From Candidatus Altiarchaeota archaeon (lineage in GTDB: Archaea > Altiarchaeota > Altiarchaeia > IMC4 > QMZM01): a stretch of 64,000 nt of DNA. This document shows, piece by piece, positions 4,768 to 33,867 of this stretch. The notes beneath the pieces are model-generated. The model was not told where the DNA came from and searched no databases. It saw only the letters and a program-made list of their open reading frames with translations. The stretch is taken from contig JAFGDV010000002.1 of NCBI GenBank assembly GCA_016931955.1, forward strand, positions 48,471 to 112,470. The letters run 5' to 3'. How positions within the stretch are numbered: the first letter of the stretch is position 1; each line of letters starts with the position of its first letter. Made by a program: the position numbers and the translations under genes.

Positions 4768-4809
4768 TTCTCCCTCTAATCCTAGTCTTGCAGGCATTCT
4801 ATGCACCCC

Positions 4810-6942: not shown

Positions 6943-7246
6943 CTATATCACCTTTTTCTTTCTTTATTTTGTTTTTTTAATCTTATATGGGCAGTTTGAT
7001 AGCTGGGGTGGGTGCGCCCATCAGACCACCCTAAGTTTTATCTTCTAAAGTTATTTCTGCAAACTTATATAAATATGTTTCTATATTTCTACGTCGGCAT
7101 AGTGATATCTCAACATAATTATCATTTGACTAAACGCTCATGAGCCACATTATAAGTCAAAAGAATGCATATAACATCTGAAGATGGCTGTATTAGATCA
7201 ACAAAAAATAGGTTAAGTATTTACTTATTACTGCCATCTTATGCTA

Positions 7247-7660: not shown

Positions 7661-7661
7661 C

Positions 7662-8336: not shown

Positions 8337-8349
8337 GTTGCTCCCCAGA

Positions 8350-8970
8350 TCAAAGAGACTTCAATTTTCTGTCAATCTTGTTAACCAGAACGCCCAACGA
8401 AGACGAATCCAAGAGGAATATGAAATCACCCGTTATCTCGCCCCTCTTCCCCCTGAATTTGACCTGGATAATCAAAACAGACTCTATCCTCTTATCAATG
8501 CCTCGAAGCACGAAATCTATCAGAGACTTTGCGACGTCAAAAACAATGCAGGGAGGAGAATGATACAAGGTAACACCTAAAAAGTTGCCCAACTCGGTGA
8601 GGTAACTTGCCGTCAATATGTTACCAACCTCTCCCAAGGCAGAGCGATCATCGTAACTTAGAATCTCCGTGGTCCCAATATCCCTGCCGTAGAGCAGGTC
8701 AGATAAAGCCAGTGAGCTCTCACGCGAGAGGACCAAGAGGCTTGTTCCGCCCAGGTCGCCCATCATCCTCAAGTAGATACCCATTGCAAGCGTATCTGGA
8801 CCCCCCACCCTCTTCGGCACTTCCCCTATAGGCAGAAACTGCACCTTAGACATCTCTACCTCAACACGGCTTTCAACCATCTTGGAGAGCGACTTTGTGG
8901 CAGTGACCATGCCTTTATCCGCAACGCCCTTTAAAGCCCTCTTTTGTCCCTCCGTAAGTTGAGCAACCAT
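8350..8970 (-). CDS. cheC: CheC-like phosphatase (second site intact)
   Basis: SALGEVGNIL; CheC fold pattern. Confidence 0.85.
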   Translation of the reverse strand: MVAQLTEGQKRALKGVADKGMVTATKSLSKMVESRVEVEMSKVQFLPIGEVPKRVGGPDTLAMGIYLRMMGDLGGTSLLVLSRESSLALSDLLYGRDIGTTEILSYDDRSALGEVGNILTASYLTELGNFLGVTLYHSPPCIVFDVAKSLIDFVLRGIDKRIESVLIIQVKFRGKRGEITGDFIFLLDSSSLGVLVNKIDRKLKSL

Positions 8971-8980
8971 CTTCTTTTAC

Positions 8981-9460
8981 TTAGATCGAGGTAGTCGGAC
9001 CATGTATCCTGCTGACGACGACCTCACCTGTTTCGGTGTCGAACCAGATAGATCTGCCCTCGGTCCCGCCAACATCCTCGGCTACTATCTCAATGCACTT
9101 CTCTCTGAGCTTTTTTCTGACTGCTTCCACATTTTTCTTGCCTATGTCAGATATCCTTGGTACGTTGGGGAAAATCTCGGCTCCGCCGCATAGTTTCGCT
9201 TTTATATCATGTGTCTTGCAGCCGAGGATGAGCATGCTCTTTACCATGGCATCTACTGTCTTGTCGACGAACCTCAGGGGATTGATACCCTGAGCAGCCT
9301 CTTTGCTATCTGGGAGGATTATGTGAGCTAAAGCGGCTATCTTTGTCTTCTCGTCTCTTAGACAGATGGCTACGCATGAGCCCAAACCAAGAACCTCCAG
9401 TATGCAAGGATTATGTATTATCTTGAACTCTGCCATGCCGACTGTTATCTTCTTAGTCAT
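8981..9460 (-). CDS. cheD: Chemoreceptor glutamine deamidase CheD
   Basis: GLGSCV, AHIILP, AKLCGGA, AEDVGG..GR. Confidence 0.93.
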   Translation of the reverse strand: MTKKITVGMAEFKIIHNPCILEVLGLGSCVAICLRDEKTKIAALAHIILPDSKEAAQGINPLRFVDKTVDAMVKSMLILGCKTHDIKAKLCGGAEIFPNVPRISDIGKKNVEAVRKKLREKCIEIVAEDVGGTEGRSIWFDTETGEVVVSRIHGPTTSI

Positions 9461-10106
9461 CTTTTTTTTCTTCCATCTCCAAGAGGTACCTGACGTTTTT
9501 GATAAGCACGCCCATGTGAGAGTAAAACAGAACTACGAAGTGGCCGGTTATCTCCAACCCTTCTACGAGGAATCGGGTGTTGAACAAGAGGGCATTTTCG
9601 ACATCGCAGGCATGTTGCGCTATTATGGGGTCCATCACAGAGTCGAGCATATCCGCTGCCAGCGCTGGAAGAGACTCCACAAGGCTCAGGTTAAGGTACT
9701 CTGCAATTGCAGAGAGATAGCTTCCTGCGAGGATGTTTCCGATCTCCATCAATGTGGAACGATCCATATCCGACAGCTCTTCAGCTCCAGTTGCTTCCTC
9801 CCCTTGCAGGATCTTCGCAAGTGTTGCCGCATCCTTTACAGGGAGTACCAGAAGTAGACTGCATACCTCGAATTGGTTATCAAGGGATGTGCCATCAATA
9901 TGCAGGTATATGTTGGTTATCTCCTTCTCTGGTCTGCCCATCTTGGATGTGACGGTTTCAAGGGGACACACCTCCATCCAAGGAAAGCTTACCTCGATCT
10001 TCTTGTCTGTAAGGGACGATAGGGCGATCGATGCATGCCCAGCTCCAATGGAGGATATCTCCATCAGGGCATCTAACTCCAGTGGCGTCAGGTTCTTGAA
10101 TTTCAT
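9453..10106 (-). CDS. cheC: CheC-like phosphatase (second site intact)
   Basis: DALMEISSIGAGHA and STLMEIGNILAG. Confidence 0.88.
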   Translation of the reverse strand: MKFKNLTPLELDALMEISSIGAGHASIALSSLTDKKIEVSFPWMEVCPLETVTSKMGRPEKEITNIYLHIDGTSLDNQFEVCSLLLVLPVKDAATLAKILQGEEATGAEELSDMDRSTLMEIGNILAGSYLSAIAEYLNLSLVESLPALAADMLDSVMDPIIAQHACDVENALLFNTRFLVEGLEITGHFVVLFYSHMGVLIKNVRYLLEMEEKKDD

Positions 10107-11107
10107 AGTATCTCAACGATTTTATCTGCGATACCCAGCAAAGGCAGGATGAAATCCGCATCCCCGTTTCTTATAATCATTTTAGGCATTCCAAATATTA
10201 AACTTGTTGATTCATCTTGGACTATGATCTTTCCACCATTCTTTTTTACCCACTTCACCCCATTCGCGCCGTCATCTCCCATACCAGTTAATATAACCGC
10301 TATTACGTTTTTACCGCATACCTTCGAAACGGACTTCAATGTGACGTCTATGCAAGGCTTTACTATAGTATGTTTTTTGTTTAATTGAGTAAATAAATGT
10401 TTCCCTTTTTGCACTACCTCCAGGTTGTAACCCCCAGGAGCCACTAGAACCTTGCCTTTATCAAGTAGGCTGCCTTCTTTTGCTTCTTCCACCTTTAGTG
10501 GGCACACTGCATCCAGCGTCTCAGCGAACGCCTTAGTGAATCCCGCCGGCATGTGTTGTACGACTAGAACGGCAGCTGGAAAATCCTTTGGGAACGAAGA
10601 CAGTATAGTTCTAATTGTGGCCACACCACCGCAGGAAGCACCCAATACCAAAACCTTCTCGGATATCTTAGGCGCAGACAATTTTTTCTTCGGCTTCTTT
10701 ATCACGAGTTTTTTTATCTCAAGGGATGATGCGACTCGCACCAATGCTATCAGCTCTTCCTTCATTTCCTCCAGATCGCTGAGCCGGTTAGGCATCACTA
10801 TGAAGTCCACTGCCCCATAGCCTAAGGCACTCAGCATCTCCCGCCTTCCCAGATCAGATTCTCGGCCGACCACTATCGTTGGAGTAGGATCAAGCAGCAT
10901 TATGTTGTAGAGGATGTCCAATGCATGTACTCCCTTCATCTCTATGTCTAGTAGAACAACATCCGGCTCAAGGAGCTCAATCTTGTCTAAAGCCTCCTCA
11001 GCTAGACCAGAGCGGTGGATGACCTTTATCTCTGGTTCGGACTCCAGCATACATGTAAGCTTGACCCCAAAAAAATAAGAATCCGCTATTATGAGGACCT
11101 TGATCAT
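10103..11107 (-). CDS. cheB: Chemotaxis methylesterase CheB (receiver plus esterase)
   Basis: GASCGG, VQHMP, LTGMGDDG catalytic motifs; N-terminal receiver. Confidence 0.93.
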   Translation of the reverse strand: MIKVLIIADSYFFGVKLTCMLESEPEIKVIHRSGLAEEALDKIELLEPDVVLLDIEMKGVHALDILYNIMLLDPTPTIVVGRESDLGRREMLSALGYGAVDFIVMPNRLSDLEEMKEELIALVRVASSLEIKKLVIKKPKKKLSAPKISEKVLVLGASCGGVATIRTILSSFPKDFPAAVLVVQHMPAGFTKAFAETLDAVCPLKVEEAKEGSLLDKGKVLVAPGGYNLEVVQKGKHLFTQLNKKHTIVKPCIDVTLKSVSKVCGKNVIAVILTGMGDDGANGVKWVKKNGGKIIVQDESTSLIFGMPKMIIRNGDADFILPLLGIADKIVEIL

Positions 11108-11116
11108 TCTCCCATT

Positions 11117-11485
11117 CTATGAGAATCTCCTGACAACATCAAGTATCTGCTCCCTCTTGAATGGTTTGGTTACGTAGGCCTTTGCACCTATCCTCATCGC
11201 TTCTTTCATAGGATCCCCATGGCCTATGGCGGTTACCATGACAATGACCGCTTTTGGATCTATTTTCATGATCTCGGCTAAGACCTGCAGACCATCCTTC
11301 TCTGCCATTATTATGTCCAGTAAGACGATGCCGGGCCTTTCTTTCTTGTAGACCTCAACTGTTTCAGTCCCGTTCTGGGCTTCAACGATATCGCGATAAC
11401 CTTCCTCAGAGAGCATCGTCTTAAGCATATTCCTCATGAAGGCAGAATCATCTGCCAACAATACCTTAGGTTTTGCCATTTTCAT
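11117..11485 (-). CDS. cheY: CheY-like response regulator
   Basis: ADDSAFMR, LLDIIM, YVTKPF. Confidence 0.88.
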   Translation of the reverse strand: MKMAKPKVLLADDSAFMRNMLKTMLSEEGYRDIVEAQNGTETVEVYKKERPGIVLLDIIMAEKDGLQVLAEIMKIDPKAVIVMVTAIGHGDPMKEAMRIGAKAYVTKPFKREQILDVVRRFS

Positions 11486-11849
11486 CCAAGAGTTTGTTTA
11501 TGTTTTTAATCAACTTTGCCTCAGTTATCGGCTTTGATATGTATGAGCACGCCCCTCGTTTGATGCAGTCCTCCATGGTCTTCTGATCCCTTATTATGCT
11601 CGACACTATAATCTTCACCTCGGGTTTGATCTCCATCAGCCTATCGAGCACATACAACCCGTCATTGCCAGGCATCTTCAGATCGAGCAATACGATATCT
11701 GGATCCTCTACACCGCACTTTAGTATGCAATCGTTTCCGTTAACGGCCTCGACGACATCACTGTACCCGTTTTTTTGGAGGATGCTAATCAACGCCCTGC
11801 GCTCGAACATGGAGTCATCTGCTACAAGTATCTTGACCATCAGCACCAC
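11466..11849 (-). CDS. cheY: CheY-like response regulator
   Basis: ADDSMFER, LLDLKMP, YISKP. Confidence 0.82.
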   Translation of the reverse strand: MVLMVKILVADDSMFERRALISILQKNGYSDVVEAVNGNDCILKCGVEDPDIVLLDLKMPGNDGLYVLDRLMEIKPEVKIIVSSIIRDQKTMEDCIKRGACSYISKPITEAKLIKNINKLLDENGKT

Positions 11850-11926
11850 TATCTTGACTAATTAAATATCTATCTTCTCATTTATATCCTTTTTGTTTTT
11901 CTCATTTAAAGTTCTATTCTATTATA

Positions 11927-12289
11927 ATGCACGAGTTCTCGATAGCTGAAGACATCCTGGAGGTCGCACTGGATGAGGCGGAAAAGCATAAAGCTTCCAG
12001 GATAAAACACATCTCTGTGGAGGTTGGAGGGCTCATGATGGCGAACCTCGAGCAATTGGATTTCGCCCTCAGATCCCTGTCAGTTGGAACCCTTGCAGAG
12101 GATATGGAAGTCGACCTGAAGACGGTCCCTGGGAGATTCAAGTGCGACAACAACCACGTGAATGAGGTAAGTATTGAGGAGGATGACCTCTACCTGGCCC
12201 TAGCCTCTCTCAGATGCCCTGAATGCGGCAGCCCTCTAAGGGTGTTGAGCGGAAAAGAGTGCGTGCTGAAGAGGATAATCGCCGAATAA
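11927..12289 (+). CDS. hypA: Hydrogenase nickel chaperone HypA
   Basis: MHEFSIA N-terminus; CPECGS; GKEC.LKRI. Confidence 0.92.
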   Translation: MHEFSIAEDILEVALDEAEKHKASRIKHISVEVGGLMMANLEQLDFALRSLSVGTLAEDMEVDLKTVPGRFKCDNNHVNEVSIEEDDLYLALASLRCPECGSPLRVLSGKECVLKRIIAE

Positions 12290-12296
12290 CGCTAAA

Positions 12297-12947
12297 ATGC
12301 ATGTGATAGACGTAGACAGGGATATCATGGAGATCAACAGGAGGATATCTGAAAGGAACCAAAGAGTCTTGGAAGAGAACAATGTCTTTGGATTCGATGT
12401 TTTGGGGGCTATCGGCTCTGGCAAGACCTCCCTGATTGAGGCCTTGGTTGGGAGGATCGGGAAAAAACTGGGGATCGGAGCGATAGCGGGTGACGTTATT
12501 AGTGACGCCGACGCCAGCCGTTTGAAGAGGTGTGGAATCCCAGTCATCGGCTTGAACACTGGAAGGGAGTGCCATCTTGACGCCCACCTCGTCGAGCATG
12601 CGCTTGAGAGCCTTCCATTAAAGGACCTCGACATTCTGTTCATAGAGAACGTGGGGAACCTCATATGTCCAGTAGACTTCCCGCTTGGGGCACATCGGAG
12701 GATCGTTGTAGTAAGCGTGAGCGAGGGGGACGACACCGTAGAAAAGCACCCCATGATCTTCCTGGACTCTGATCTTGCGGTGATAAACAAGATAGACATC
12801 GCAGAAGCGGTTGATGCGAGCGTTGAGAAGATGGAATACGACGCCAAACGGATCAATCCACGGCTGCCTGTGATAAAAACAAGCATGAAGAAGGGTATCG
12901 GTCTAAACGAAATAGTCGATTGGATAAGAAAAGAATCCAATCTATAG
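12297..12947 (+). CDS. hypB: Hydrogenase nickel-insertion GTPase HypB
   Basis: GSGKT, ECHLDA, ENVGNLICP, NKID. Confidence 0.95.
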   Translation: MHVIDVDRDIMEINRRISERNQRVLEENNVFGFDVLGAIGSGKTSLIEALVGRIGKKLGIGAIAGDVISDADASRLKRCGIPVIGLNTGRECHLDAHLVEHALESLPLKDLDILFIENVGNLICPVDFPLGAHRRIVVVSVSEGDDTVEKHPMIFLDSDLAVINKIDIAEAVDASVEKMEYDAKRINPRLPVIKTSMKKGIGLNEIVDWIRKESNL

Positions 12948-12962
12948 TTTAATGGTGATATC

Positions 12963-13202
12963 ATGTGTCTGGCTATCCCAGGAAGGATCCTGGATATAAA
13001 GGACAATGAAGCATCTGTTGACTTCGGCGGCGTGAAAAGGCCTGTTAGGATTGACTTAGTCGACGCCAAGGTGGGAGACTACGTCATCGTCCATACGGGA
13101 TACGCAATCGAGGTATTGGATGAAGAGGAAGCTCTTGAAAGCCTGAAACTGTGGAGACAAATCCTCTCCAAAATGGACGATGATCCTAAGAGATTTCCGT
13201 GA
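12963..13202 (+). CDS. hypC: Hydrogenase chaperone HypC
   Basis: MCLAIPG N-terminus; VGDYVIVHTGYA. Confidence 0.95.
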   Translation: MCLAIPGRILDIKDNEASVDFGGVKRPVRIDLVDAKVGDYVIVHTGYAIEVLDEEEALESLKLWRQILSKMDDDPKRFP

Positions 13203-14250
13203 TAGGGGGCTTGCCTTGAAGGCGTCAAAGGAGATAGGGGATATGGCATCAACCTTGGGCAAGGTAAAGATCATGCACGTCTGCGGAACCCACGAAGACA
13301 CAATAACCCGTTTTGGGATAAGGTCTCTTCTCCCAGAGAATGTGGAGGTGATATCCGGTCCTGGATGCCCTGTCTGCGTTACGACGAACAGGGAGATAGA
13401 TGAAGCCATATCGCTCGCACAAAAAGGCATTACTGTGACGACGTTCGGTGACATGCTCCGGGTCCCTGGAAGCCGCTCCTCGCTGGCGGACTCGAAGGCT
13501 GATGGAAATGATGTGAGGATCGTCTACTCCGTAACTGACGCAGTAGAGATCGCCCATAAGAATCCGGAGAAAGAGGTTGCTCACATCGCCATAGGCTTCG
13601 AGACAACGATACCATCCAACGCGGTCGCCCTCCAAGACGCTCCTGAGAATTTCTCGATCCTATGCTGTCACCGGCTTATCCCTCCAGCGATGGAGTTGCT
13701 CTTGGAGTCTCACGAGGTGAGGATAGACGGCTTCATAGATCCTGGGCATGTTTCAGCCATAATAGGAGTAAAACCCTATAGACCTCTGGCGGAAAAATAC
13801 AGGATACCTCACGTAATCGTCGGCTTCGAGCCCCTTGACGTTCTCTTCTCCATCATAATGCTGCTGGAGATGATAAAAAACCATGAATGTGAGGTAAGGA
13901 ATGAGTACAGCCGCGTCGTCAAGGAGGAAGGCAATCAGAAGGCCTTAAGTATCATGGACGCTGTCTTCGAACCCTGCGACGTGGATTGGAGGGGCTTTCC
14001 TGTGATCCCAAGATCCGGGCTCATGTTGAGGGAACGATTCGCTGAACACGACGCAAGAGAGAGGTTCGAGCTTAGGGTAGAACCGACAGAGGATCTTCGG
14101 GGATGCAGGTGCTCTGATGTCTTGAAGGGGTTGATATATCCCAGAGAGTGCCCGCTCTTCGGTAAGGCGTGCACTCCCAAGAAGCCTGTCGGTCCCTGCA
14201 TGGTCTCTGCTGAGGGCGCATGCTCTATAATGTACAGACACACTAGCTAG
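13180..14250 (+). CDS. hypD: Hydrogenase maturation protein HypD
   Basis: HVCGTH, GPGCPVC, GFETT, PGHVS, GPCMVSAEGAC. Confidence 0.96.
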   Translation: MILRDFRDRGLALKASKEIGDMASTLGKVKIMHVCGTHEDTITRFGIRSLLPENVEVISGPGCPVCVTTNREIDEAISLAQKGITVTTFGDMLRVPGSRSSLADSKADGNDVRIVYSVTDAVEIAHKNPEKEVAHIAIGFETTIPSNAVALQDAPENFSILCCHRLIPPAMELLLESHEVRIDGFIDPGHVSAIIGVKPYRPLAEKYRIPHVIVGFEPLDVLFSIIMLLEMIKNHECEVRNEYSRVVKEEGNQKALSIMDAVFEPCDVDWRGFPVIPRSGLMLRERFAEHDARERFELRVEPTEDLRGCRCSDVLKGLIYPRECPLFGKACTPKKPVGPCMVSAEGACSIMYRHTS

Positions 14251-14251
14251 G

Positions 14252-15250
14252 ATGGAAAGGATAAAACTCTTACACGGTGGCGGGGGGGAAGCCATGCAGG
14301 AATTGATCTCTGACGTGATTAAGAACCTCTCCCTCACAAAGGTTGAGGGTGGGATCGGCTTGGATGCCTTGGACGATTCAGCAACCATACCCTTTGGAGA
14401 CAAGCACCTTGTCTTCACCACGGATGCGTACACTGTAAAGCCGTTGTTCTTCCATGGGGGGGACATAGGCAGGCTCTCTGTTTCAGGGACCATAAACGAC
14501 CTCGCTGTTATGGGCGCTAAACCAATCGCTCTCGCCTCTTCTTTCGTTATCGGTGAAGGCCTCCCATTTGAAGACTTGCGGAAGATAACGAAGTCCATGA
14601 ACCAGGTCTGCAAGGAGGTCCCAGTACCTATTATTACAGGAGACACCAAGGTCATGGAAGACCTTGATATGATCATAACAACGTCTGGCATAGGTTTAAC
14701 AGAAAAACCGATACTGGACTCCGGGATGCGGCCAGGTGACAGGATAATAGTGAACGGCACCCTCGGCGATCACGGTATGGCGATCATGGCTCAGAGGGAG
14801 GGCATATCTTTCGAGACCGAACTGAGGTCTGACTGCGCACAGTTGTGGGGTCTTATAAAAAAGATCCTTAGATACGAGATACATGCCATGAAGGATCCTA
14901 CGAGAGGCGGCCTAGCGAACGCCTTAAATGAGATGGCTGAGAAATCAAAATCAGGGGTTTTGTTGTATGAGGACCAGATACCCATGAAAGATGAAGTACT
15001 TGCGGCGTCTGAGATGCTTGGCATAGATCCCCTGTCTGTGGCAAACGAAGGGAAAGCCATTATTGTCACAAGCGAAAATGATACTGAGAAAATCCTAGAA
15101 ACGATGAAGAAGACCCGCTTGGGTCGGGATGCCTCCATAATAGGTGAGGTGACCGAAAAAGATAAGGGACGGGTGATAATGGAGACCCGCATAGGTGGCA
15201 GAAAGATCCTCAGCAAGCCTGCCGGCGACCCTGTCCCAAGGGTCTGTTAG
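14252..15250 (+). CDS. hypE: Carbamoyl dehydratase HypE
   Basis: HGGGG, GDTKV, DPTRGG, ANEG, C-terminal PRVC. Confidence 0.96.
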   Translation: MERIKLLHGGGGEAMQELISDVIKNLSLTKVEGGIGLDALDDSATIPFGDKHLVFTTDAYTVKPLFFHGGDIGRLSVSGTINDLAVMGAKPIALASSFVIGEGLPFEDLRKITKSMNQVCKEVPVPIITGDTKVMEDLDMIITTSGIGLTEKPILDSGMRPGDRIIVNGTLGDHGMAIMAQREGISFETELRSDCAQLWGLIKKILRYEIHAMKDPTRGGLANALNEMAEKSKSGVLLYEDQIPMKDEVLAASEMLGIDPLSVANEGKAIIVTSENDTEKILETMKKTRLGRDASIIGEVTEKDKGRVIMETRIGGRKILSKPAGDPVPRVC

Positions 15251-15251
15251 G

Positions 15252-15713
15252 ATGAAAACCCTGATACTGGGCATTGGGAATCCTATACTGACCGATGACG
15301 GCGTTGGTGTTTTGATTGCTGAACGCCTACGTGATGTTGTCTCAGACCCGGAAATCGATGTCCGTGAGGAATCAACGTCTGGTCTTGACATCATAAGCCT
15401 TGTTAGGGGTTATGATAGGCTCATCCTCGTGGACGCTATAAAGACGGGTAAAGCCAGGGTTGGGGAGATACTCCGGCTCTCGCCTCAGGATATTACCAAG
15501 GAGCCTGCACTTCATTTCTCGACCCTTCATGACGCGGATTTGATGACATCCCTGAATCTTGGTAGTGAACTTGGGATAGATATCCCTAGCGAAATAGTGA
15601 TATACGCTGTTGAGGTCGAAAACGTGGAGGAATTTGGCGAGAAGTGCACACCTGAAGTGGAAAAAGCCATACCCAAGGCAGTGGAATTAATAAAGGAGGA
15701 ATTGGGTCTATAA
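15252..15713 (+). CDS. Hydrogenase maturation endopeptidase (HyaD/HycI family)
   Basis: LGIGNPILTDDGVG, ILVDA, STLHD; start at ATG 15252. Confidence 0.9.
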   Translation: MKTLILGIGNPILTDDGVGVLIAERLRDVVSDPEIDVREESTSGLDIISLVRGYDRLILVDAIKTGKARVGEILRLSPQDITKEPALHFSTLHDADLMTSLNLGSELGIDIPSEIVIYAVEVENVEEFGEKCTPEVEKAIPKAVELIKEELGL

Positions 15714-17084
15714 CCTCGGGAGGCTGGGGCTGTATGCCCTACATGCCATTTCTATCTTGTTGAGGTCTCTTCTTTTTGTGTTATTATTCCTGATCAATCC
15801 ATCTGCCACCTGTTTTACAGAGACGCATATAGCCGCATTGTTGTGGTTGCTGCCCGTTATTATGTCCGCCTTCTCTACGATGCCTTTCTCGTCTGTCACA
15901 TAGTGGTGGATGAGTGTCCCTGAGGGTGATTCTATAACGCCCACACCCTCCCCTTGCGTGTTTTCTGGAACATTCATCAGATTGTTGTCAGTAATCTCCG
16001 GATCCTGTATCAGCTCCAAAGCAAGCTCGGCTGAATAAAGCATTTCTATGAGGTCGGCCCAATGAAACGCCAAGGTGTGATGGCAGGGTTTCGGCAGTGT
16101 GTCAAGCATCCTCTCATATGCTTCCTGTGCCTGAGGTGTTTTCAATCCGTAGGCAACGTTTAATCTGGCCAGTGACCCGACCCGGTAAAGCCAAGAACGA
16201 TCAGCGTCAGATAGCCCCTTCCAGCCAACCTTCCTCAGATGTGAGAAACCCAGATTAGACCATGATTCCTCGTGTTCTTCCACGTGCTGGGGGTAGTCTT
16301 CTCCCCTGAACCTTAAGATCTCCCTTCCGTGGGCGTCCACGACTTTTAGATCGCCATCATAGAGTTCAAGGCGTTCTTTTTCGTCCACTGTACCCATGTA
16401 GTTCGTCTTTATATGGTAGAGCCCCTCATCGAACAGTAGATCCACGTATGCACGATTCTTTAACACGATTTCTTCGAACAGATTTAATGTAAACGCTGCG
16501 AATTCTGTAAATGACTTTACTTTGCCCTCTACCCAATCCCTCTCCTCTCCAGTGATACCCCGAGAGACGCCTCCGGGAAGCCCGCTTACTGGATGAACTG
16601 CCCTTCCCCCCAAGACCTGGAGTATCCTCTGTGCACGAAGAAGGTTTTCTGCCGCGTCCTTTGAGGTTTCCCTCCCGAGCCTCGCCGTTATTGCAGTGAG
16701 ATTCCTTTCGCGAGCTGCTGAATCAGGGTTGATGAATAGGTCTGGAGCATTCAGGTAATAAAAATTTAGTAGTTTATTCCCAAAATGGGAGATATGGTAT
16801 GTTAGTCTCCTTAGCTTGTCTGCTGTGGGTGTTGGCTCTGTTTTCCACAGAGCATCAAGTGCCTTCACAGACGCTATATGATGGGCCCAGCTGCATAGCC
16901 CGCTCATCCTTGAAATGATCCTCGGCATCTCCTCAGACGGCTGTCCGCGACATAATTCCTCAAAACCCTTCATACCCTTCGCTTGAAAGTACGCACTCAC
17001 TCCCATCTCCCTATCTGAAAATATAGTTATCCTAGCGTGGCCGTTTATTCTCGTTACCGGGTCTATTATTATCTTTTTCCTCAA
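15708..17084 (-). CDS. MvhA-like [NiFe]-hydrogenase large-subunit homolog lacking Ni-binding motifs (pseudo-hydrogenase)
   Basis: DPVTRINGH, KGFE, RMSGLCSWAHH, VGSLARLNV, ESPSGTLIHHY, ends RAYSPSLPRL; aligns by eye with 35386..36822. Confidence 0.85.
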   Translation of the reverse strand: MRKKIIIDPVTRINGHARITIFSDREMGVSAYFQAKGMKGFEELCRGQPSEEMPRIISRMSGLCSWAHHIASVKALDALWKTEPTPTADKLRRLTYHISHFGNKLLNFYYLNAPDLFINPDSAARERNLTAITARLGRETSKDAAENLLRAQRILQVLGGRAVHPVSGLPGGVSRGITGEERDWVEGKVKSFTEFAAFTLNLFEEIVLKNRAYVDLLFDEGLYHIKTNYMGTVDEKERLELYDGDLKVVDAHGREILRFRGEDYPQHVEEHEESWSNLGFSHLRKVGWKGLSDADRSWLYRVGSLARLNVAYGLKTPQAQEAYERMLDTLPKPCHHTLAFHWADLIEMLYSAELALELIQDPEITDNNLMNVPENTQGEGVGVIESPSGTLIHHYVTDEKGIVEKADIITGSNHNNAAICVSVKQVADGLIRNNNTKRRDLNKIEMACRAYSPSLPRL

Positions 17085-18061
17085 TTTCTAGATGCCCTCC
17101 TTTGTTTCTTTAGGATGCTCGACGACAGGCTGAAGCGGTAGACTGTTCCACCAAGGGAGGGTATGCTCTCAACCGTCTTTCTTATGGTGGTCTTCTCTCC
17201 ACCGCACATAATGGAAGCTAACGTCGATATGTAGGCTCCACCCATGTCGAGGATTCCCTCAGCTGGTCCAAGGCATCCCCTACAAGGCATATTGGCTGAA
17301 ACACACTGGCTTCCGCACCCGGCTCTTGTTACAGGACCCATGCACAGCAGCCCCTGGTCAAGCAAGCAGACCTTATCGTCGAAAACCTTTTCATAGGGTC
17401 TGTGGAATACCTTGACGCTTTTCCCCTTCCTCGCTCTCTCACATTCGTCGCAGAGTGTCCTCCCAGAAGCGAACACTGAGCCTTTAGGAGGTAGTTTGTT
17501 CTCCAGCATGCTGACGAATAGCTTCAGGATCATTGAAGGTGTTGGGGGACAACCTGGGATGAGATAGTCCACATCAATGACACCGCTTAATGGACTGATG
17601 AAGTCGCATGGCTCCGGAAGTGGAAGTATGCCCTCAGCAAGCTTTACCCTCTTCCTTGATTTTTCCTTCCCCTTGCCCTGTAGACCCAGCATGCCAGGTA
17701 TTCCGCCCATGCAGGCGCATGATCCAACCGCTGTGATTATCTTGGATTTTTTTCTTAGAATCTGGGCCATGTCCATCTGCCCCCTGTTCATCACAGCACC
17801 GTTGAAGAGACAGAGGTCGATTGTTTTGTCATACATCCTCTTTACCCGAGAGTATCTGAAATCCGCTATTAGAGGCCATAAAACGACGTCAATGTTTTCA
17901 GTTATATCCAAGAATCTCTCGCCCAATCCTATGAAGGAGAGATCACAACCACCACATCCTCCTGCCATGTACAGTGCAACCTTCGGTTTTCTTCCTGGAC
18001 TAATCTTCCTTACAGCTTCCGCTACCTGCGACCAGTCTTCTCTGAATGCCTTAAGCTTCAT
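17081..18061 (-). CDS. mvhG: MvhG-like Fe-S hydrogenase small subunit
   Basis: GCGGCD, GSCACMGG, PGCPP, LCDEC, CLL..G..CMGP..RAGC..QC...NMPCRGC. Confidence 0.85.
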   Translation of the reverse strand: MKLKAFREDWSQVAEAVRKISPGRKPKVALYMAGGCGGCDLSFIGLGERFLDITENIDVVLWPLIADFRYSRVKRMYDKTIDLCLFNGAVMNRGQMDMAQILRKKSKIITAVGSCACMGGIPGMLGLQGKGKEKSRKRVKLAEGILPLPEPCDFISPLSGVIDVDYLIPGCPPTPSMILKLFVSMLENKLPPKGSVFASGRTLCDECERARKGKSVKVFHRPYEKVFDDKVCLLDQGLLCMGPVTRAGCGSQCVSANMPCRGCLGPAEGILDMGGAYISTLASIMCGGEKTTIRKTVESIPSLGGTVYRFSLSSSILKKQRRASRN

Positions 18062-18440
18062 TCTCCCACCTTAGGGGTCCCAGGGATTTAAGCTTTGACG
18101 TCATCTCCTTGACAAGTTTCATGAACCCAAAGCTCTCAGACTCCTTAAGGCATTCGAAGCGTAGCCTTTCCCTGCTTATCCTCAGATCAGAGAGCAACCT
18201 TTGGAGGAGAACAAACCTCTTGAATGCTTCCCCGTCTTCCTCCGCTGAGTGGCATTCCCCCGGAGGGCTGCACAGCATCAGGATTCCGTCTGCGCCTTTT
18301 TTGAGTTCTGAGAGCAGAAGCTTTGGGTTAAGGTGATTAACACATCCCTCCCTTACCAGGGGGATTTCCTCAAGGCCGACGTTTTTAGGCAGACAGGATT
18401 TACAGGCAAAGACAATGATCTTGGGCTCATATTCTTCCAT
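18051..18440 (-). CDS. mvhD: MvhD-like [2Fe-2S] subunit
   Basis: YEPKIIVFACKSC, GADGI..LC.PPGECH, ERLR, LGP. Confidence 0.8.
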   Translation of the reverse strand: MEEYEPKIIVFACKSCLPKNVGLEEIPLVREGCVNHLNPKLLLSELKKGADGILMLCSPPGECHSAEEDGEAFKRFVLLQRLLSDLRISRERLRFECLKESESFGFMKLVKEMTSKLKSLGPLRWENEA

Positions 18441-19290
18441 TTATGATCTTCTCCGTTATTCCCTCATACGCGCTCTTCACCTTCCCATCCGACCTATAAT
18501 GGGAGAGTGGCAAGCCTCTTTTCTGCGCTTCGTAGACCTTTTTGGAGTATGGTACTATGAAAAGGTCTCCTCTGAACCCAACGCCTACCGACAAATGCAG
18601 CCGTAGTTTGTCTTCAAGCTCACTGAGGGGGTCTTCAAGAGACAGAAACCCTGATAGTTTCGGTACCCTATCCCTCAGCATCTTGTGTATTGGACGCACC
18701 GTGGGTTCCTGGAACCTTGTAACAATCACAGTGTTGATCCCCTTCTTCACGCCCTCCCTTTCTTCTATATTCTTCAGTATCTCAGCAAAGGTTTCGATGC
18801 TGTCTATGGAGAAGAAACCGCTGTCCAAGGGTAGTATGATAGAGTCTGCTGCAACGATTGCATTGGTCAGTAGTGGCGTGTAGCTGGGGGGCGTATCTAT
18901 CAGTATGTAATCATAGAGTTCTCTGACATCGTCTAGGGCTCGATCAAGTATCTGGGAGGAACCCTTAGCCTTCTGCATGTGACCAAGGATGTTCGCCAGA
19001 TTCAGTTCTGACGGAGCCAGATGAAGATCCTCTATCTCTGTTGCAAGTATCACATTCCTGAACCTTAACTTCCTTTTTCTCCCGCATCCCTCAAGAAGCA
19101 CATCATATACCGAGAACGGCAGGTATCTTTTGTTTATATTCAAACCAGCGGTTGCGTTTGCTTGGGGGTCCATGTCGACGACAAGGACCTTCTTGCCTCT
19201 TTTCACCAGTTCCCCCGCAATGTTTATGCATGAGGTCGTCTTGCCCGTGCCGCCCTTATGGTGGGCGAATGCTATGCATTTAGCCCGCAT
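18427..19290 (-). CDS. ParA/Soj/MinD-family ATPase
   Basis: HKGGTGKTT deviant Walker A, DMDPQANAT, YDYILIDTPP. Confidence 0.92.
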   Translation of the reverse strand: MRAKCIAFAHHKGGTGKTTSCINIAGELVKRGKKVLVVDMDPQANATAGLNINKRYLPFSVYDVLLEGCGRKRKLRFRNVILATEIEDLHLAPSELNLANILGHMQKAKGSSQILDRALDDVRELYDYILIDTPPSYTPLLTNAIVAADSIILPLDSGFFSIDSIETFAEILKNIEEREGVKKGINTVIVTRFQEPTVRPIHKMLRDRVPKLSGFLSLEDPLSELEDKLRLHLSVGVGFRGDLFIVPYSKKVYEAQKRGLPLSHYRSDGKVKSAYEGITEKIINGRI

Positions 19291-19395
19291 CCTAATCAAC
19301 AATATCGCAGAAAGTTCAGCCAGATGGATTACAAGAGACGCACGCTTGAGCCTCTTTAAGCATATATTAAGTAGAACTATTATAAATACGTGTAA

Positions 19396-20046
19396 CTATT
19401 CCCCGACCTTCTTGTCAAGTTTTTCTATGATCAGCTTCAGTGATTTTGAGTCTGGGAGGAATATCAATCTCCCCTTTATCGTGGTCTCCTTCGCCGTGAA
19501 CTCCGTCGCCAGAATGAGTGCCTTCTTTATCTCCCATGTGAAGCCCTTCCTTATGTCGGTGACAGACCTCTCCGTCATTGTGAAAGAAACCAGTGGAACA
19601 TGATGGCACGGCCGCACATCCAAAAAATCGCTGAGTGCTGTAAGATATGATCCAAAGAGTATGTTGGATAACTCACTCAGAGCATCCCGCGATATCTGAT
19701 CCAACACACTGGTTTCTTTTCTTACCAGGATATTGCTGATTATTATGTCAGCCAATTTCGTCGCATCTTCTCTCTCAAAGACCATCACTATCAGGGCATT
19801 GATGTCGCCTGTTATGAGGGAGGAGATTTCGACGAGCAAATCCCTCGGAGGTGCAAGGGTTGAGGGTACTTCGTCGATGCCGACCAGTTTCACCCATGGA
19901 ACCCTCAACATTATCTCGCAGTCTAGCATCTCTGAGAGGGCGACGCTTGAGCTCCCGGCGCCGATAGTCCCTACCTCTCTAAGAGCATCCAGCTGCAGCT
20001 TCGTCATACCTATGTCTTCCGTCATCCTCTTATAGATTTTACTCAA
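19396..20046 (-). CDS. cheC: CheC-like phosphatase (second site intact)
   Basis: DALREVGTIGAG and DALSELSNIL. Confidence 0.85.
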   Translation of the reverse strand: MSKIYKRMTEDIGMTKLQLDALREVGTIGAGSSSVALSEMLDCEIMLRVPWVKLVGIDEVPSTLAPPRDLLVEISSLITGDINALIVMVFEREDATKLADIIISNILVRKETSVLDQISRDALSELSNILFGSYLTALSDFLDVRPCHHVPLVSFTMTERSVTDIRKGFTWEIKKALILATEFTAKETTIKGRLIFLPDSKSLKLIIEKLDKKVGE

Positions 20047-20127
20047 TCATGTATAAAAACATGTGAACGGCAGAAAGTATTTATAAGAGAAATACAAATA
20101 CAATTATCAAATTATCGGGTGATCTGA

Positions 20128-20493
20128 ATGCCTAAGATTTTGACCATAGAAGACTCTACTTTTGAGAGGAAGGCCATACGCGATATGCTGGCTAGGGCAG
20201 GGTACACCAGCGTAGTGGAGGCTGAGAGCGGCGAGATCGGCTTAGAGAGGTACAAGAAGGAAAAACCTGACCTTGTTTTATTGGATCTCCGGATGCCAGG
20301 TATGCCTGGGATGGAAGTCTTAGAGGAGTTGAAGAAGATCAATCCAAGAGTCAGGGTGATAATAGTCAGCATAGTGAGGAAGAAGGAGACCGTCGACGAA
20401 GCGTTGAAGCTGGGCGTCGAAGCCTATGTTTCAAAACCGATCACTACCGAGAAACTAATACCTGAAGTTAAAAAAGCATTAGGAGGGAATTAA
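20128..20493 (+). CDS. cheY: CheY-like response regulator
   Basis: EDSTFER, LLDLRMP, YVSKP. Confidence 0.85.
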   Translation: MPKILTIEDSTFERKAIRDMLARAGYTSVVEAESGEIGLERYKKEKPDLVLLDLRMPGMPGMEVLEELKKINPRVRVIIVSIVRKKETVDEALKLGVEAYVSKPITTEKLIPEVKKALGGN

Positions 20494-20853
20494 ATGACCA
20501 AAATACTATTAGCGGATGATTCTGCCTTTATGAGGAAGATACTGACTAACATATTAACCAAGAAGGGATACACTGACCTCATCGAAGCTGTGGATGGAGA
20601 AGAGACTGTGGCAGCCTATACCAGAGAAAAACCGGACCTTGTTCTCTTGGATATAGTAATGAAGAAGAAATACGGAACCGAGGCGTTGAAGGACATAATG
20701 CAGATGGATCCAAACGCCAAGATAATAATGGTATCGGCAGTAGGGCAGGAGAAGGTTATCGAGGAGGCAATTCAATTAGGCGCCAAGGGTTTTGTTGTTA
20801 AACCCTTCAAGGAAGAGGAAGTCTTAAGCAAGGTTAAGGAAGTCCTTGGCTAA
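20494..20853 (+). CDS. cheY: Chemotaxis response regulator CheY
   Basis: ADDSAFMR, LLDIVM, VSAVGQ, FVVKPF; directly upstream of cheA. Confidence 0.92.
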   Translation: MTKILLADDSAFMRKILTNILTKKGYTDLIEAVDGEETVAAYTREKPDLVLLDIVMKKKYGTEALKDIMQMDPNAKIIMVSAVGQEKVIEEAIQLGAKGFVVKPFKEEEVLSKVKEVLG

Positions 20854-20871
20854 TTCTCTGAATGCTCGGAA

Positions 20872-22461
20872 ATGGCAGATGACATGAGTGAATATAAGGA
20901 GCTCTACCTGAAGGAGGCGGAGGAATTACTGCAAAGCCTGAATTCTTCACTACTTGAGTTCGAGAAGAACCCGACAAGGGAGGACCTTATAAAGGAGATG
21001 GCACGTTGTGCCCATACACTCAAGAGTAATTCTTCTTCAATGGGTTTCGAGAAACTGGCGGAATTATCTCACTCCATGGAGGACGGGTTGTTGATGCTCC
21101 AGGAGTCCGGCATTGAAGCCAGCGATGAGATCATCGACCTCCTCTTTGAATGCTTCGACTACCTGGAGGTCTCAGTGGACAAGGTAAGCACTGGTGAGGA
21201 GGAACCAGACAACACAGATCTTTTGAAGAAACTGGAGGTGCTGAAATCCACTGACATAAAGAAGAGGAGTAAGGAGGAGTCTGGTGTGAAACTCGCCGAA
21301 CGGCCTCAGACCATCAGGAGGCTTCGCTCAATCAAGGTGGACATCAAGATCCTAGATAAATTGGTGGACTTGGTTGGAGAACTACTGACCGCAACCATGA
21401 GGTTCCAGAACCTGAACTCAACGTACAAGATCAAGGAATTCGACAAGATAATAAACCAGCTGAATATGCTAACGGAGGATATCCAATACGAGGTCACTGA
21501 AGCAAGAATGATCCCTGTTGGCCAGGTATTCAACCGGTTTCCGAGGATGGTGCGAGACCTGGCGAAGAGGGAGAACAAGAAGGTGGACTTCACCATTGAG
21601 GGAAGCGACATACAACTGGATAGAACTGTGTTGGATCAGATCGGTGAGCCACTGATCCATCTGCTGAGGAATTCCATAGACCACGGCATCGAATCTCCGG
21701 AGGAGAGGATTAAGGCAGGCAAACCCGAGACAGGCAAAATCCATTTGAGAGCCAGTAGAGAGAAAAACGCCGTAATCATTGAGGTCATTGACGATGGCGC
21801 AGGCTTCGATGAAGACAAGATAAAGGAGATAGCAATAAAAAAGGGCGTGATAACGGAGGAGGAGGCTAAGACCATACCCAAAAAGCAGTTACTGGATATC
21901 CCATTTCTGCCCACTTTCAGCACATCCGATAAGGTCACCAAGGTCTCCGGCAGAGGGGTTGGATTGGATGTTGTCAAGACAAAGATTGATGAACTAAATG
22001 GGTCGCTGAAGATGGAGACCGAAAAGAGCAAGGGGACGAGATTCATCCTAGGTCTGCCGCACACTCTAGCAATCATCAAGTGCCTCCTAACGTACGTCGG
22101 CGAGGAACGCTATGCTTTGCCCATCATTGATATCTCAAGGATCGTCAACATCGAAGAATCTAGGATGCAACACATCGAAGGCAATGAAGTCTTCATTCTC
22201 GATGGCGAAGACATACCCCTGATAAGGCTGCGCGACGTATTTAATCTGCCCCGCAAGAAAGACAGAAAACTGACGGTAATAATTACTGAGAGAACCCAGG
22301 AGAAGAACGGTATTGCTGTGGATGGGATCATCGGTGAACAGGAGCTTATGATAAAGTCGGTGACTAAAACGCTGAAGAAGATCAAGGGAATAGCAGGTGC
22401 TACCATCCTTGGCGATGGTCAACCCGCCATGGTCTTGGATATTAATGGCCTGCTTGCTTAG
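20872..22461 (+). CDS. cheA: Chemotaxis histidine kinase CheA (no evident P2 domain)
   Basis: Hpt AHTLKS; HLLRNSIDHG, DDGAG, SGRGVGLDVV; C-terminal CheW-like P5. Confidence 0.95.
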   Translation: MADDMSEYKELYLKEAEELLQSLNSSLLEFEKNPTREDLIKEMARCAHTLKSNSSSMGFEKLAELSHSMEDGLLMLQESGIEASDEIIDLLFECFDYLEVSVDKVSTGEEEPDNTDLLKKLEVLKSTDIKKRSKEESGVKLAERPQTIRRLRSIKVDIKILDKLVDLVGELLTATMRFQNLNSTYKIKEFDKIINQLNMLTEDIQYEVTEARMIPVGQVFNRFPRMVRDLAKRENKKVDFTIEGSDIQLDRTVLDQIGEPLIHLLRNSIDHGIESPEERIKAGKPETGKIHLRASREKNAVIIEVIDDGAGFDEDKIKEIAIKKGVITEEEAKTIPKKQLLDIPFLPTFSTSDKVTKVSGRGVGLDVVKTKIDELNGSLKMETEKSKGTRFILGLPHTLAIIKCLLTYVGEERYALPIIDISRIVNIEESRMQHIEGNEVFILDGEDIPLIRLRDVFNLPRKKDRKLTVIITERTQEKNGIAVDGIIGEQELMIKSVTKTLKKIKGIAGATILGDGQPAMVLDINGLLA

Positions 22462-22477
22462 ATACCACAGTACCAAA

Positions 22478-23155
22478 ATGACTGAACTATCAAAATTCGA
22501 GATCGACGCGATAGCTGAGATAATAAACATCGGTGCAGGGCATGCATCCAACGCACTATCCGTGATGACTCGCAAGGACATACACATGAGCTTCCCTGAG
22601 GTGAAACTATGTCCGATAGAAAAGATACCCCAGCTCCTTGGCAATCCCGAGGACCTGGTTGCCGCAGTTTATCTCAAGATCGAGGGCAAGAGTAACAACA
22701 AACTCATCCCCGTTGGAAGCCTGATCTTTATGTTACAGCATGATAGCGCAGAGGAGCTTGCGGCGCTTTTAGAGAACAGGAAACCGCCTAAAGAGAAGAG
22801 TTTCGAACTCGGTGAGATGGATGTATCCGCATTAGAGGAGACTGGAAACATCCTCAGCGGTGCTTCATTAACAGCGATAAGCAAGGTCCTTGACATGCAA
22901 TTGGTCGAGTCACTGCCACATTTCGCACACGACATGCTTCAAGCAGTATTGAGTTTCTGTTTGATCGAGCTGGCCCCAAAGGCGACGGATGCGTTGACAT
23001 TTACGACCGCATTCGAGGTCGAAGGCCACGAAATAGACGCCTACTTCCTCCTTTTATTAGACCCAGAGAGCTTAGAGCTCCTCAGTAAGAGACTGAGGAC
23101 ACTATTTGAGGATATGCTAGCGGAATACATAGAAGAGGAGTACTCAGATGCGTGA
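22478..23155 (+). CDS. cheC: CheC phosphatase (both ExxN sites intact)
   Basis: DAIAEIINIGAG and SALEETGNIL; start at ATG 22478. Confidence 0.9.
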   Translation: MTELSKFEIDAIAEIINIGAGHASNALSVMTRKDIHMSFPEVKLCPIEKIPQLLGNPEDLVAAVYLKIEGKSNNKLIPVGSLIFMLQHDSAEELAALLENRKPPKEKSFELGEMDVSALEETGNILSGASLTAISKVLDMQLVESLPHFAHDMLQAVLSFCLIELAPKATDALTFTTAFEVEGHEIDAYFLLLLDPESLELLSKRLRTLFEDMLAEYIEEEYSDA

Positions 23156-23627
23156 GAAACAAGCATATTTGAACATAGGGGAGGGCAGGGTAGTTAATGA
23201 ACCGACGATTCTCGAAGCAGTTGGCATAGGCTCATGCATCGTAATCTGCCTTTATGATAAAGAAAAAAGGGTGGCTGGCATGGTCCATGCCCTATTAGGC
23301 AACAATCCGCATGACGAAAAAGCGGATCTGAATCCCATGAGGTTCGCCGATACTGCTATAGATCTCCTATTAGGGGAGATGGCCGAAAAGGGCTGCCAAA
23401 AGGGGAACATAGTCGCGAAGATCTTCGGCGGGGCTAAACTCTTTACCTTGGAACACATCAACGTGGGCGAAGATAACATATTTGCTGTAAGACAGAAACT
23501 CGAAGAGGTTGGAATACCAATAGTAGCTGAAGACACCGGTGGAAAACACGGCAGGAATATCTGGTTCGACACAGAAAACGGGAAAGTAGTTGTTGGGAGG
23601 GTCTTCGGACCCACGTTGGAGTATTAG
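23148..23627 (+). CDS. cheD: CheD deamidase (second copy)
   Basis: GIGSCI, GMVHALL, AKIFGGA, AEDTGG..GR. Confidence 0.92.
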   Translation: MREKQAYLNIGEGRVVNEPTILEAVGIGSCIVICLYDKEKRVAGMVHALLGNNPHDEKADLNPMRFADTAIDLLLGEMAEKGCQKGNIVAKIFGGAKLFTLEHINVGEDNIFAVRQKLEEVGIPIVAEDTGGKHGRNIWFDTENGKVVVGRVFGPTLEY

Positions 23628-33858: not shown

Positions 33859-33867
33859 GTGTTTAGG

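Follow-up and report, generated by a model that had tools for sequence, protein, structure and literature searches.

A stretch of 64,000 nucleotides (nt) from Candidatus Altiarchaeota archaeon (assembly GCA_016931955.1, contig JAFGDV010000002.1, positions 48,471 to 112,470; hereafter the window) contains four consecutive genes, parA, mvhD*, mvhG* and mvhA*, the last three of which encode relatives of the subunits of Mvh-type [NiFe]-hydrogenases; the asterisk marks the copies at this locus. The coordinates of the open reading frames (ORFs) agreed with the original prediction, made from the DNA letters, of a single gene string overlapping end to start downstream of a same-strand cheC (Table 1), with overlaps of 14 nt for parA/mvhD*, 11 nt for mvhD*/mvhG* and 4 nt for mvhG*/mvhA*, and of a large subunit of 458 amino acids whose frame is open throughout, with no stop and no frameshift. 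Scans with Pfam and NCBIfam assigned the products to NiFeSe_Hases/VhuA, Oxidored_q6/VhuG, FlpD/VhuD, AAA_31/ParA and, for the upstream neighbour, CheC. The ATG at 19290, inside the longest ORF for parA (18427-19302), was the one in agreement with the starts of the orthologs. In the gap of about 100 nt between cheC and parA, TATA-like A/T boxes were read by eye, and a promoter specific to parA-mvhD*G*A* may lie there. The G+C content at third codon positions and the codon use of all four genes lay within one standard deviation of the 851 long ORFs of the genome. No family match was obtained in an Rfam scan of positions 11000-21000 and no meaningful repeats flanked the mvh* block; given these two results, an explanation by a mobile element or an RNA was dropped.

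Table 1. Genes and other features of the locus and of the operons around it (positions in the window)
Feature	Position	Strand	Description
mvhA*	15708-17084	minus	Homolog of the group 3c [NiFe]-hydrogenase large subunit, 458 amino acids; ORF plus Pfam/NCBIfam
mvhG*	17081-18061	minus	Small subunit, 326 amino acids; the 12 Cys of three [4Fe-4S] clusters present
mvhD*	18051-18440	minus	Divergent [2Fe-2S] subunit of the MvhD/FlpD family, 129 amino acids
parA	18427-19290	minus	ParA/MinD-family ATPase; longest ORF reaches 19302
cheC-parA spacer	19291-19395	minus	TATA-like A/T boxes; possible own promoter of the operon
cheC	19396-20046	minus	Same strand, upstream neighbour of parA; Pfam CheC
hypA-hypB-hypC-hypD-hypE-hycI	11927-15713	plus	Maturation operon converging on mvhA*; hypC 12963-13202, HycI-family endopeptidase 15195-15713
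cheY-cheY-cheA-cheC-cheD	20128-23627	plus	Divergent chemotaxis operon, syntenic with relatives
cheY, cheY, cheB, cheC, cheD, cheC, cheC, helix-turn-helix protein, Cache-type methyl-accepting chemotaxis protein, cheW	4222-11849	minus	Second chemotaxis operon

Loss of the [NiFe] site in MvhA*

MvhA* was compared with the intact paralog of the window (35386-36822), to which it is 36% identical, and with 14 canonical relatives. All four motif changes named in the original prediction were present. RINGH stands where all of these proteins have RLEGH (E14N, the proton-relay Glu); L1 reads RMSGLC against the canonical CGVC, with the first Cys replaced by Ser (C61S); EAPRG has become ESPSG (R388S, the canopy Arg); and the protein ends in SPSLPRL-stop instead of DPCxxCxxH and a tail of about 30 residues, L2 having undergone D452S and C454S and stopping short of the last Cys and His. 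Only one of the four metal-ligand Cys (C64) is left. The Glu of RxEGH and the Arg of EAPRG act in [NiFe] hydrogenases as proton relay and in the canopy of the metal site, and both columns (E14 and R388) are at least 98% conserved among 125 canonical relatives. No hidden CxxC or L2 motif was seen by eye in the alternative frames of the mvhA* 3' end; past the stop lies the end of the convergent hycI gene.

The protein is nevertheless recognisable as a group 3c large subunit by its sequence, its fold and its position inside the 3c clade of the tree, whereas it has neither the L1 motif CGxCxxxH, nor the L2 motif DPCxxCxxH with a HycI-cleaved extension, nor the Glu of RxEGH, nor the Arg of EAPRG. 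It scored 65.7 bits with PF00374 and 298 bits with the NCBIfam model VhuA, whose equivalog cut-off is 800 bits. An AlphaFold2 model built on a 15-row alignment reached a predicted local distance difference test (pLDDT) value of 83.4 and a predicted template modelling (TM) score of 0.89, with values below 50 pLDDT in two segments only (residues 10-15 and 453-458), which are the stretches that normally wrap the metals. In a Foldseek search with this model the first match was 5odc_F (MvhA; TM score 0.90/0.93). On the strength of the residues lost, these results show that the [NiFe] site cannot form in MvhA*. The nickel-free pseudo-hydrogenase put forward originally is thereby upheld, as the fold persists while three of four ligand Cys have gone, together with the proton-relay Glu, the canopy Arg and the C-terminal tail. 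The best explanation for the locus is that mvhD*G*A* specifies an Fe-S complex, kept by selection and associated with ParA, that derives from a group 3c (Mvh-type) hydrogenase but has no nickel and does not act on H2, an account to which we give an even chance.

Fe-S subunits, constraint and distribution

In MvhG*, all 12 Cys columns were retained, each of them being 100% Cys in 127 canonical MvhG from related loci, and alignment with 5odc_E (5e-54) put the cluster Cys of the proximal, medial and distal [4Fe-4S] in place. This subunit has an 18-residue loop deletion, and about half of its residues differ from its nearest relatives. MvhD* was more altered: C13, C16, C33 and C63 were in register whereas C57 was off by one residue, nine residues were deleted beside the first Cys pair, and the conserved stretch W-V-S-A-x-E-G was replaced. 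It aligned with 5odc_D (2.5e-16) and scored 70 bits with FlpD, as compared with 189 bits for the MvhD of a relative. Its alignment suggests that the [2Fe-2S] site is mostly kept. The earlier statement that both subunits preserve their Fe-S motifs consequently stood in full for MvhG* and for the greater part for MvhD*. Taken together, the fold of MvhA* and the [4Fe-4S] sites of MvhG*, three in number, were shown to be preserved, and the site of MvhD* appears to be so in large part.

Departures from the consensus were counted per conservation bin in an alignment of MvhA* with 125 canonical clade members. They amounted to 27/113 in columns at least 98% conserved, 26/72 in columns of 90-98%, 66/116 in columns of 70-90%, 47/81 in columns of 50-70% and 73/103 in columns below 50%. 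In the most conserved bin, MvhA* with its 27 changes was a strong outlier: none of the 125 canonical rows had more than 3, and their median was 0. Fourteen of the 27 sit in the metal-site motifs and the tail. The gradient of MvhG* was steeper (5/44, 8/30, 39/68, 48/83 and 72/91, from the most to the least conserved bin). As far as these alignments tell, the changes in both proteins avoid conserved columns, and the retention of the Fe-S subunits under constraint, as originally proposed, is supported by this gradient along with the full set of MvhG* Cys. Under neutral substitution (300 runs per level, no indels), the mvhA* frame remained open in 6.7, 1.7, 0.3 and 0% of the simulations at 10, 20, 30 and 40% amino-acid divergence, respectively. 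At 0.87 changes per site, the terminal branch of MvhA* far exceeded those of the nearest neighbours (0.13-0.18). The evolution of the module is estimated to have been faster than that of the nearest canonical relatives by a factor of about 4-5. The gradients, the simulations, the codon use and the fold speak for proteins that continue to be produced and folded.

Several observations weigh against this account. Thirteen ultra-conserved residues of MvhA* have been lost outside the metal-site motifs, MvhD* is badly eroded, as its 70 bits to FlpD attest, and the C-terminal truncation of mvhA* falls on the rearrangement junction at hycI (see below), as an accident would. Two metatranscriptome runs contained next to no sampled words of the locus, with no RNA run listed for the stretch; one DNA sequencing run of the same study, possibly the source of the assembly, contained all sampled 31-mers (share 1.00). 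Among 5.8 billion protein clusters, that of MvhA* had no second member. Searches of 40 relatives gave no ortholog of MvhA* or MvhG*, and the 60 other genomes held to the phylum, among them G001 of the same genus (73% complete), had none of MvhA*, which is thus a singleton.

These observations suit the alternative that the three genes are a functionless, decaying duplicate or acquired copy, with frames open by chance and reached by read-through from parA. Presence in a single genome, the very long MvhA* branch, the truncation exactly at the junction, the erosion of MvhD* and the loss of every catalytic element, with 27 of 113 near-invariant positions changed where any of the 125 canonical relatives has at most 3, would all be expected from decay. 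We nevertheless consider it quite unlikely, as three consecutive intact ORFs have kept their start/stop overlaps, the changes concentrate in variable columns of MvhA* and MvhG*, no Fe-S Cys was lost from MvhG* although about half of its residues differ from those of its nearest relatives, an open ORF was rare in the neutral simulations and the codon use is host-like. That errors of assembly or sequencing, or a chimeric contig, produced the locus is hardly credible: the source is a metagenome-assembled genome and the stretch occurs in one DNA run only, but the locus carries many independent substitutions and no frameshifts, both flanks are syntenic with relatives, the composition is host-like and that run contains every sampled 31-mer. 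Reads of the three runs (56% of the DNA run was read) gave no contig over positions 15000-20100. The module is real and appears to be selected for, although it was seen in a single genome only.

The next matches of MvhA* were 46-51% identical (best other, 50-51%), and those inspected (14 aligned and 119 screened) keep the ligand Cys; at 50% identity, saturation of synonymous sites is to be expected. Both searches together yielded 211 non-self full-length MvhA-like proteins, 20 of which were without at least one L1 Cys in the alignment, all 20 from the representative library of 1.84 billion proteins. Seven degenerate MvhA-like proteins that were looked up belonged to clusters of 1-3 members. 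The substitutions of the L1-deficient proteins differ and the tree joins none of them to MvhA*; to judge from this, they look like independent cases and not like one family, and the loss of L1 Cys in MvhA-like proteins may recur independently. A genome scan with the degenerate P0139 returned 80 loci (best, 53% identical), its own genome not being among them. In 160 loci with 166 MvhA ORFs, strict motif expressions flagged 78 of the ORFs; inspection of the rows showed harmless variants (K/M/N/T before the L1 pair; DLCLAC), cuts at contig ends and four ORFs of hydrogenases of another type. The sole flagged ORF lacking a ligand Cys was the MvhA of the metagenomic locus L177 (7446-8813), where L2 reads D-P-S-L-G-C, the first Cys having become Ser. 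The L177 protein is otherwise canonical; it could represent such a loss at an early stage, or else an error. In a metagenome-assembled genome of Chloroflexota (L078:3248-11466), two tandem mvhD-mvhG-mvhA sets are followed by hycI; in the first MvhD the C-x-x-C pair near the N-terminus has lost its second Cys, while both motifs are present in the accompanying MvhA, and the HycI is the closest match (45%) to the window HycI at 15195-15713.

Origin of the module and its relation to ParA

The hyp-hycI operon, which was not taken up in the original prediction and permits other readings of mvhA*, converges on it so closely that the hycI and mvhA* stops overlap by 6 nt on opposite strands. In relatives the hyp genes adjoin hypF-hdrA/mvhD-mvhG-mvhA1, and in G001 hycI lies between mvhA1 and hdrC, a place where it is missing in the window's genome (G000). 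The canonical operon of G000, hypF-hdrA(fused mvhD)-mvhG1-mvhA1-hdrC-hdrB (G000:C5:25957-34182), is situated 17 kb upstream of the window, and its MvhA1 is a closer intact paralog of MvhA* (46-47% identity) than the one in the window. With the canonical operon 17 kb away and without its own protease, the locus has therefore been rearranged, the end of mvhA* being one junction. In this genome, which is 92% complete, the single HdrA is already fused to its own MvhD and lies beside MvhG1A1; no second HdrA was seen in it, and the parA-mvhD*G*A* operon contains no hdrA, the partner required for an Hdr-Mvh bifurcating complex. The canonical operon is followed by a gene for a pyridine-nucleotide disulfide oxidoreductase. 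A second intact hydrogenase occurs in the window (mvhG2, 34409-35389; mvhA2, 35386-36822) with its own HycI protease (33120-33590); the place of mvhD before mvhG2 is held by an ORF for 182 amino acids (33859-34407) that had no Pfam match even at E = 1, and a V4R domain was rejected for it.

The best tree placed MvhA* beside P0010/P0015 (91 in the Shimodaira-Hasegawa-like approximate likelihood-ratio test) and outside the clade of the archaeon's own family, MvhA1 included (100% support). Two single-residue indels of MvhA* were common to only four of the 125 canonical proteins (P0010, P0014, P0015 and P0017), all of that subclade; one member of the P0015 cluster is labelled Candidatus Omnitrophota. 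The loci of these subclade relatives read hycI-hdrA-mvhD-mvhG-mvhA, followed in L122 by hypF-, hypD- and hypE-like genes, and their MvhG are 46-47% identical to MvhG*. The module probably originated, on this phylogenetic and gene-order evidence, from a bacterial-type hdrA-mvhDGA cluster. Against this, the approximately unbiased test did not reject a duplication within the lineage (log-likelihood difference 30, p = 0.093). As MvhD* is nearer to Flox-type than to bacterial-type MvhD (37-40% identity to the stand-alone MvhD of the relatives' hdrA-mvhD-Flox-like operon vs. 29-33%), the three genes may not share one history. Five relatives (L204:4621-9724 and equivalents in L205-L208) carry an operon of the Flox-Hdr type, hdrA-mvhD-(two Fe-S proteins)-(NAD-binding/DHODB Fe-S protein); its MvhD (L204:6597-7004) is the one to which MvhD* is most closely related.

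Since mvhA* abuts hypABCDE-hycI, we considered whether MvhA* could be a scaffold of the HoxV/HupK kind, transiently holding Fe(CN)2CO for the two intact hydrogenases. The one ligand Cys kept, C64, and the absence of a cleavable tail fit such a role, and the available excerpt of PMC12134894 describes HoxV/HupK as inactive, large-subunit-like carriers of Fe(CN)2CO. The genome, however, has one HypC only (one PF01455 match), a small subunit with three clusters and an MvhD are needless for a scaffold and yet are the best-conserved parts, mvhA* lies on the parA strand, opposite to hyp, and the scans with Pfam and NCBIfam gave no match to a HupK/HoxV family. A scaffold is thus very improbable.

ParA scored 162 bits with AAA_31, and its deviant Walker A motif (KGGTGKTT) as well as VVDMDPQ and LIDTPP were invariant in five orthologs. 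The three orthologs next in similarity after the closest one (37-45%; G004, G013 and G017) all adjoin a divergent cheY(-cheY)-cheA operon, and an upstream cheC beside parA is also found in G004. In these three genomes parA is followed by the gene for a soluble methyl-accepting chemotaxis protein (MCP) whose N-terminal tail is rich in Lys and Arg, and cheW comes next (L037:5201-7987 in G004, L035:6100-8162 in G013 and L036:270-1766 in G017). The chemotaxis context of ParA is therefore present here and in G004, G013 and G017 and absent in G001, and in the window mvhD*G*A* stands at the place held by the soluble MCP in the other three, mvhD* being the next gene. No match to the soluble MCP beyond the one Cache-type receptor was found in the window's genome. 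By this synteny, the link of ParA to che genes is to be seen as dating back to the ancestor of the family and as not depending on the hydrogenase.

Further observations were made on these surroundings. The G004 MCP contains HAMP-like units in repeats as well as a PAS-like region in which a C-x9-C-x4-C stretch occurs, the G013 MCP is split over two ORFs, and between parA and the MCP lie a DsrE-family gene for 119 amino acids in G004 and a Cys-rich ORF for 72 amino acids in G013. Seven CheC-like paralogs, the parA-adjacent cheC included, occupy 22 kb of the window (3400-25200), together with two CheD, four single-domain CheY and one each of CheA, CheB, CheR, MCP and CheW. Eleven mvhA loci (L041, L043-L048, L053, L055, L070 and L162) encode an sCache_3-like domain directly after mvhA-hycI, about 0.6-1.1 kb downstream of mvhA; ten of them are labelled Aminicenantes or Eubacteriales, and the domain is 39-47% identical to residues 90-230 of the window Cache-MCP.

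Two sets of data speak against a wider association between ParA and the hydrogenase genes. Among 160 canonical mvhA loci, which carried MvhG in 156 cases, an HdrA/MvhD match in 141 and HycI in 112, none had a ParA homolog (E < 1e-6). The closest ParA ortholog (62%, from G001) lies behind an ABC transporter and away from any che or mvh gene; the incomplete G001 genome yielded no CheA. A recurrence of parA-mvhDGA synteny, proposed earlier as a check, was not observed, neither in these 160 loci nor as an ortholog in the 60 genomes of the phylum. Of the proposed tie to the Che machinery, the membership of parA in the che cluster held, but in three relatives it occurs without the hydrogenase genes. 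The association of the module with ParA is lineage-specific; none of the results shows a signal reaching CheA, CheC or CheY, and a role in chemotaxis is hypothetical.

A complex of one ParA chain (5-row alignment) with MvhD* (6-row alignment) was modelled in three runs, with three controls. The interaction score from predicted aligned errors (ipSAE) was 0.64 (0.58, 0.64 and 0.65 in the individual runs), in contrast with 0.00 in all three controls; the calibrated mark for this score was reached by 58/80 solved complexes and by 2/110 mismatched pairs. The runs shared at least 85% of contacts, with a partner pLDDT of at least 72. The modelling with ParA that had been proposed earlier supports binding between ParA and MvhD*, as a predicted contact. 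The ParA side of the interface (residues 11-14, 42-43, 96-112, 136-142 and 161-178) spans the deviant Walker A and the switch motifs, a region which we take to be the face of the ATP-sandwich homodimer of ParA/Soj/MinD. As a single ParA chain was modelled, MvhD* has perhaps been placed at the site of the second ParA, and the pose, to the detriment of the proposed association, may be a stand-in for that monomer.

That the genes form an Fe-S electron-transfer module unrelated to ParA or chemotaxis, the hydrogenase cassette and hyp-hycI having been rearranged into the che locus, is an explanation we regard as possible but unlikely. The dead large subunit would then scaffold MvhG*, with electrons passing to an unknown oxidoreductase, or its remodelled pocket would bind a new substrate, as quinone is bound at NuoD/NuoB. 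The same signatures of constraint apply to it, and the hypABCDE-hycI plus mvhA*G*D* block splits a che cluster that is contiguous or otherwise filled in relatives; nickel-free precedents exist, according to the excerpts at hand, in Ehr (PMC7304191) and in HylA of HylABC-Fdh (PMC6085437). The parA stop and the mvhD* start, however, overlap by 14 nt, the model of the ParA-MvhD* complex passes its controls, and the operon offers no candidate acceptor, the sole HdrA carrying its own MvhD.

In the preferred account of a ParA-associated Fe-S complex, MvhA* would be the structural partner of MvhG*, by analogy with NuoD for NuoB, and its former active-site pocket would be lined by Ser and Asn. The clusters of MvhG* and MvhD* could form a four-cluster electron wire or a redox-responsive unit, and MvhD*, with no free HdrA in the genome, may contact the ParA ATPase instead, as the model predicts. 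The four genes would be co-expressed, the complex possibly docked to ParA through MvhD*, and ParA would act as the positioning ATPase of the family's chemotaxis cluster. Because the soluble receptor was not found here and the Fe-S module occupies its place after parA, the module is most likely a cargo or regulator associated with ParA and not an energy-conserving enzyme. Going further, the module could replace the soluble chemoreceptor as the ParA partner, its redox state gating ParA dimerisation and so the positioning of the chemosensory or motility machinery, which would amount to a non-MCP input for redox or energy taxis; this extension we consider improbable. If true, the ParA-MvhD* contact would be the first link of a ParA/MinD positioning ATPase to a redox protein.

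Comparison with known systems

Nickel-free relatives are known for group 4 (Ehr), for HoxV/HupK and for the [FeFe]-like HylA, and none was found for group 3c in the excerpts of the literature covered; the search returned no Cys-less group 3c/Mvh protein, although paper supplements may contain such cases. In the excerpt of PMC6085437, L1 and L2 motifs are used to define MvhA and sequences without them are discarded. Soluble group 3c relics are therefore invisible in such hydrogenase surveys.

The closest known system is the MvhAGD part of HdrABC-MvhAGD (PDB 5ODC, 9SW2), which has the same three subunits in the same gene order, gave the best sequence and fold match and shares all small-subunit cluster ligands with MvhG*. 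The mvh* module differs from it in being without the L1 and L2 Cys pairs, the Glu, the Arg and the tail, in having parA in the place of hdrA, and in the deletions of 18 and 9 residues in MvhG* and MvhD*, respectively.

Like MvhA*, the large subunits of NuoD/NuoB (complex I) and Ehr have the fold without the ligand Cys and stand beside an Fe-S small subunit. NuoD/NuoB and Ehr keep only the proximal cluster. They are membrane-bound derivatives of group 4, in contrast with the soluble group 3c module and its three clusters plus MvhD. The best matches of the mvh* proteins were all of group 3, the flanks consist of hyp, parA and che genes, and no membrane subunits lie nearby, which leaves the module outside group 4. 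Ehr is said, in the excerpt of PMC7304191, to have no metal-binding Cys and to be a complex that 'likely cannot interact with H2'. With its fully ligated small subunit under constraint, the mvh* module adds the cytoplasmic Mvh type to the route from hydrogenase to Fe-S scaffold that complex I and Ehr represent. HylA of the HylABC-formate dehydrogenase is likewise a hydrogenase catalytic subunit retained after loss of its active-site motifs; the excerpt of PMC6085437 presents it as [FeFe]-hydrogenase-like, without H-cluster motifs and kept presumably for electron transfer. It differs in its unrelated [FeFe]-type fold and in that its partner enzyme is known.

HoxV/HupK resemble MvhA* as inactive large-subunit relatives encoded among maturation genes (PMC12134894, in part). 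They are proteobacterial proteins of about 37 kDa paired with a HupF/HoxL chaperone, as excerpted from PMC3534401. The present case differs in its one HypC, in the anaerobe-type archaeal genome and in the co-operonic Fe-S subunits. The regulatory hydrogenases HoxBC/HupUV (group 2b) sense H2, serve signalling and not energy metabolism, and have no cleavable C-terminal extension on the large subunit; their [NiFe] site is complete and their output goes to a histidine kinase, whereas MvhA*, by its residues, cannot bind the cofactor.

ParA-type ATPases position chemosensory arrays in the PpfA-TlpT system of Rhodobacter and the ParC-ParP system of Vibrio, and peptides that stimulate ParA are usually basic N-terminal tails of this sort. 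Here parA is followed by mvhD* and not by a receptor or a ParP-like adaptor, MvhD* has no evident basic tail, and the termini of MvhG* are not unusual. A ParA-binding tail on MvhG* was considered and rejected, its N- and C-terminal basic stretches occurring in canonical MvhG too. The likeness to PpfA-TlpT-type systems lies in a ParA encoded inside a che cluster, followed in G004, G013 and G017 by a soluble MCP with a basic tail. MinD4 of Haloferax is, in the excerpts of its reports (bioRxiv 10.1101/2020.04.03.021790; PMC11407121), a ParA/MinD-family protein involved in array positioning.

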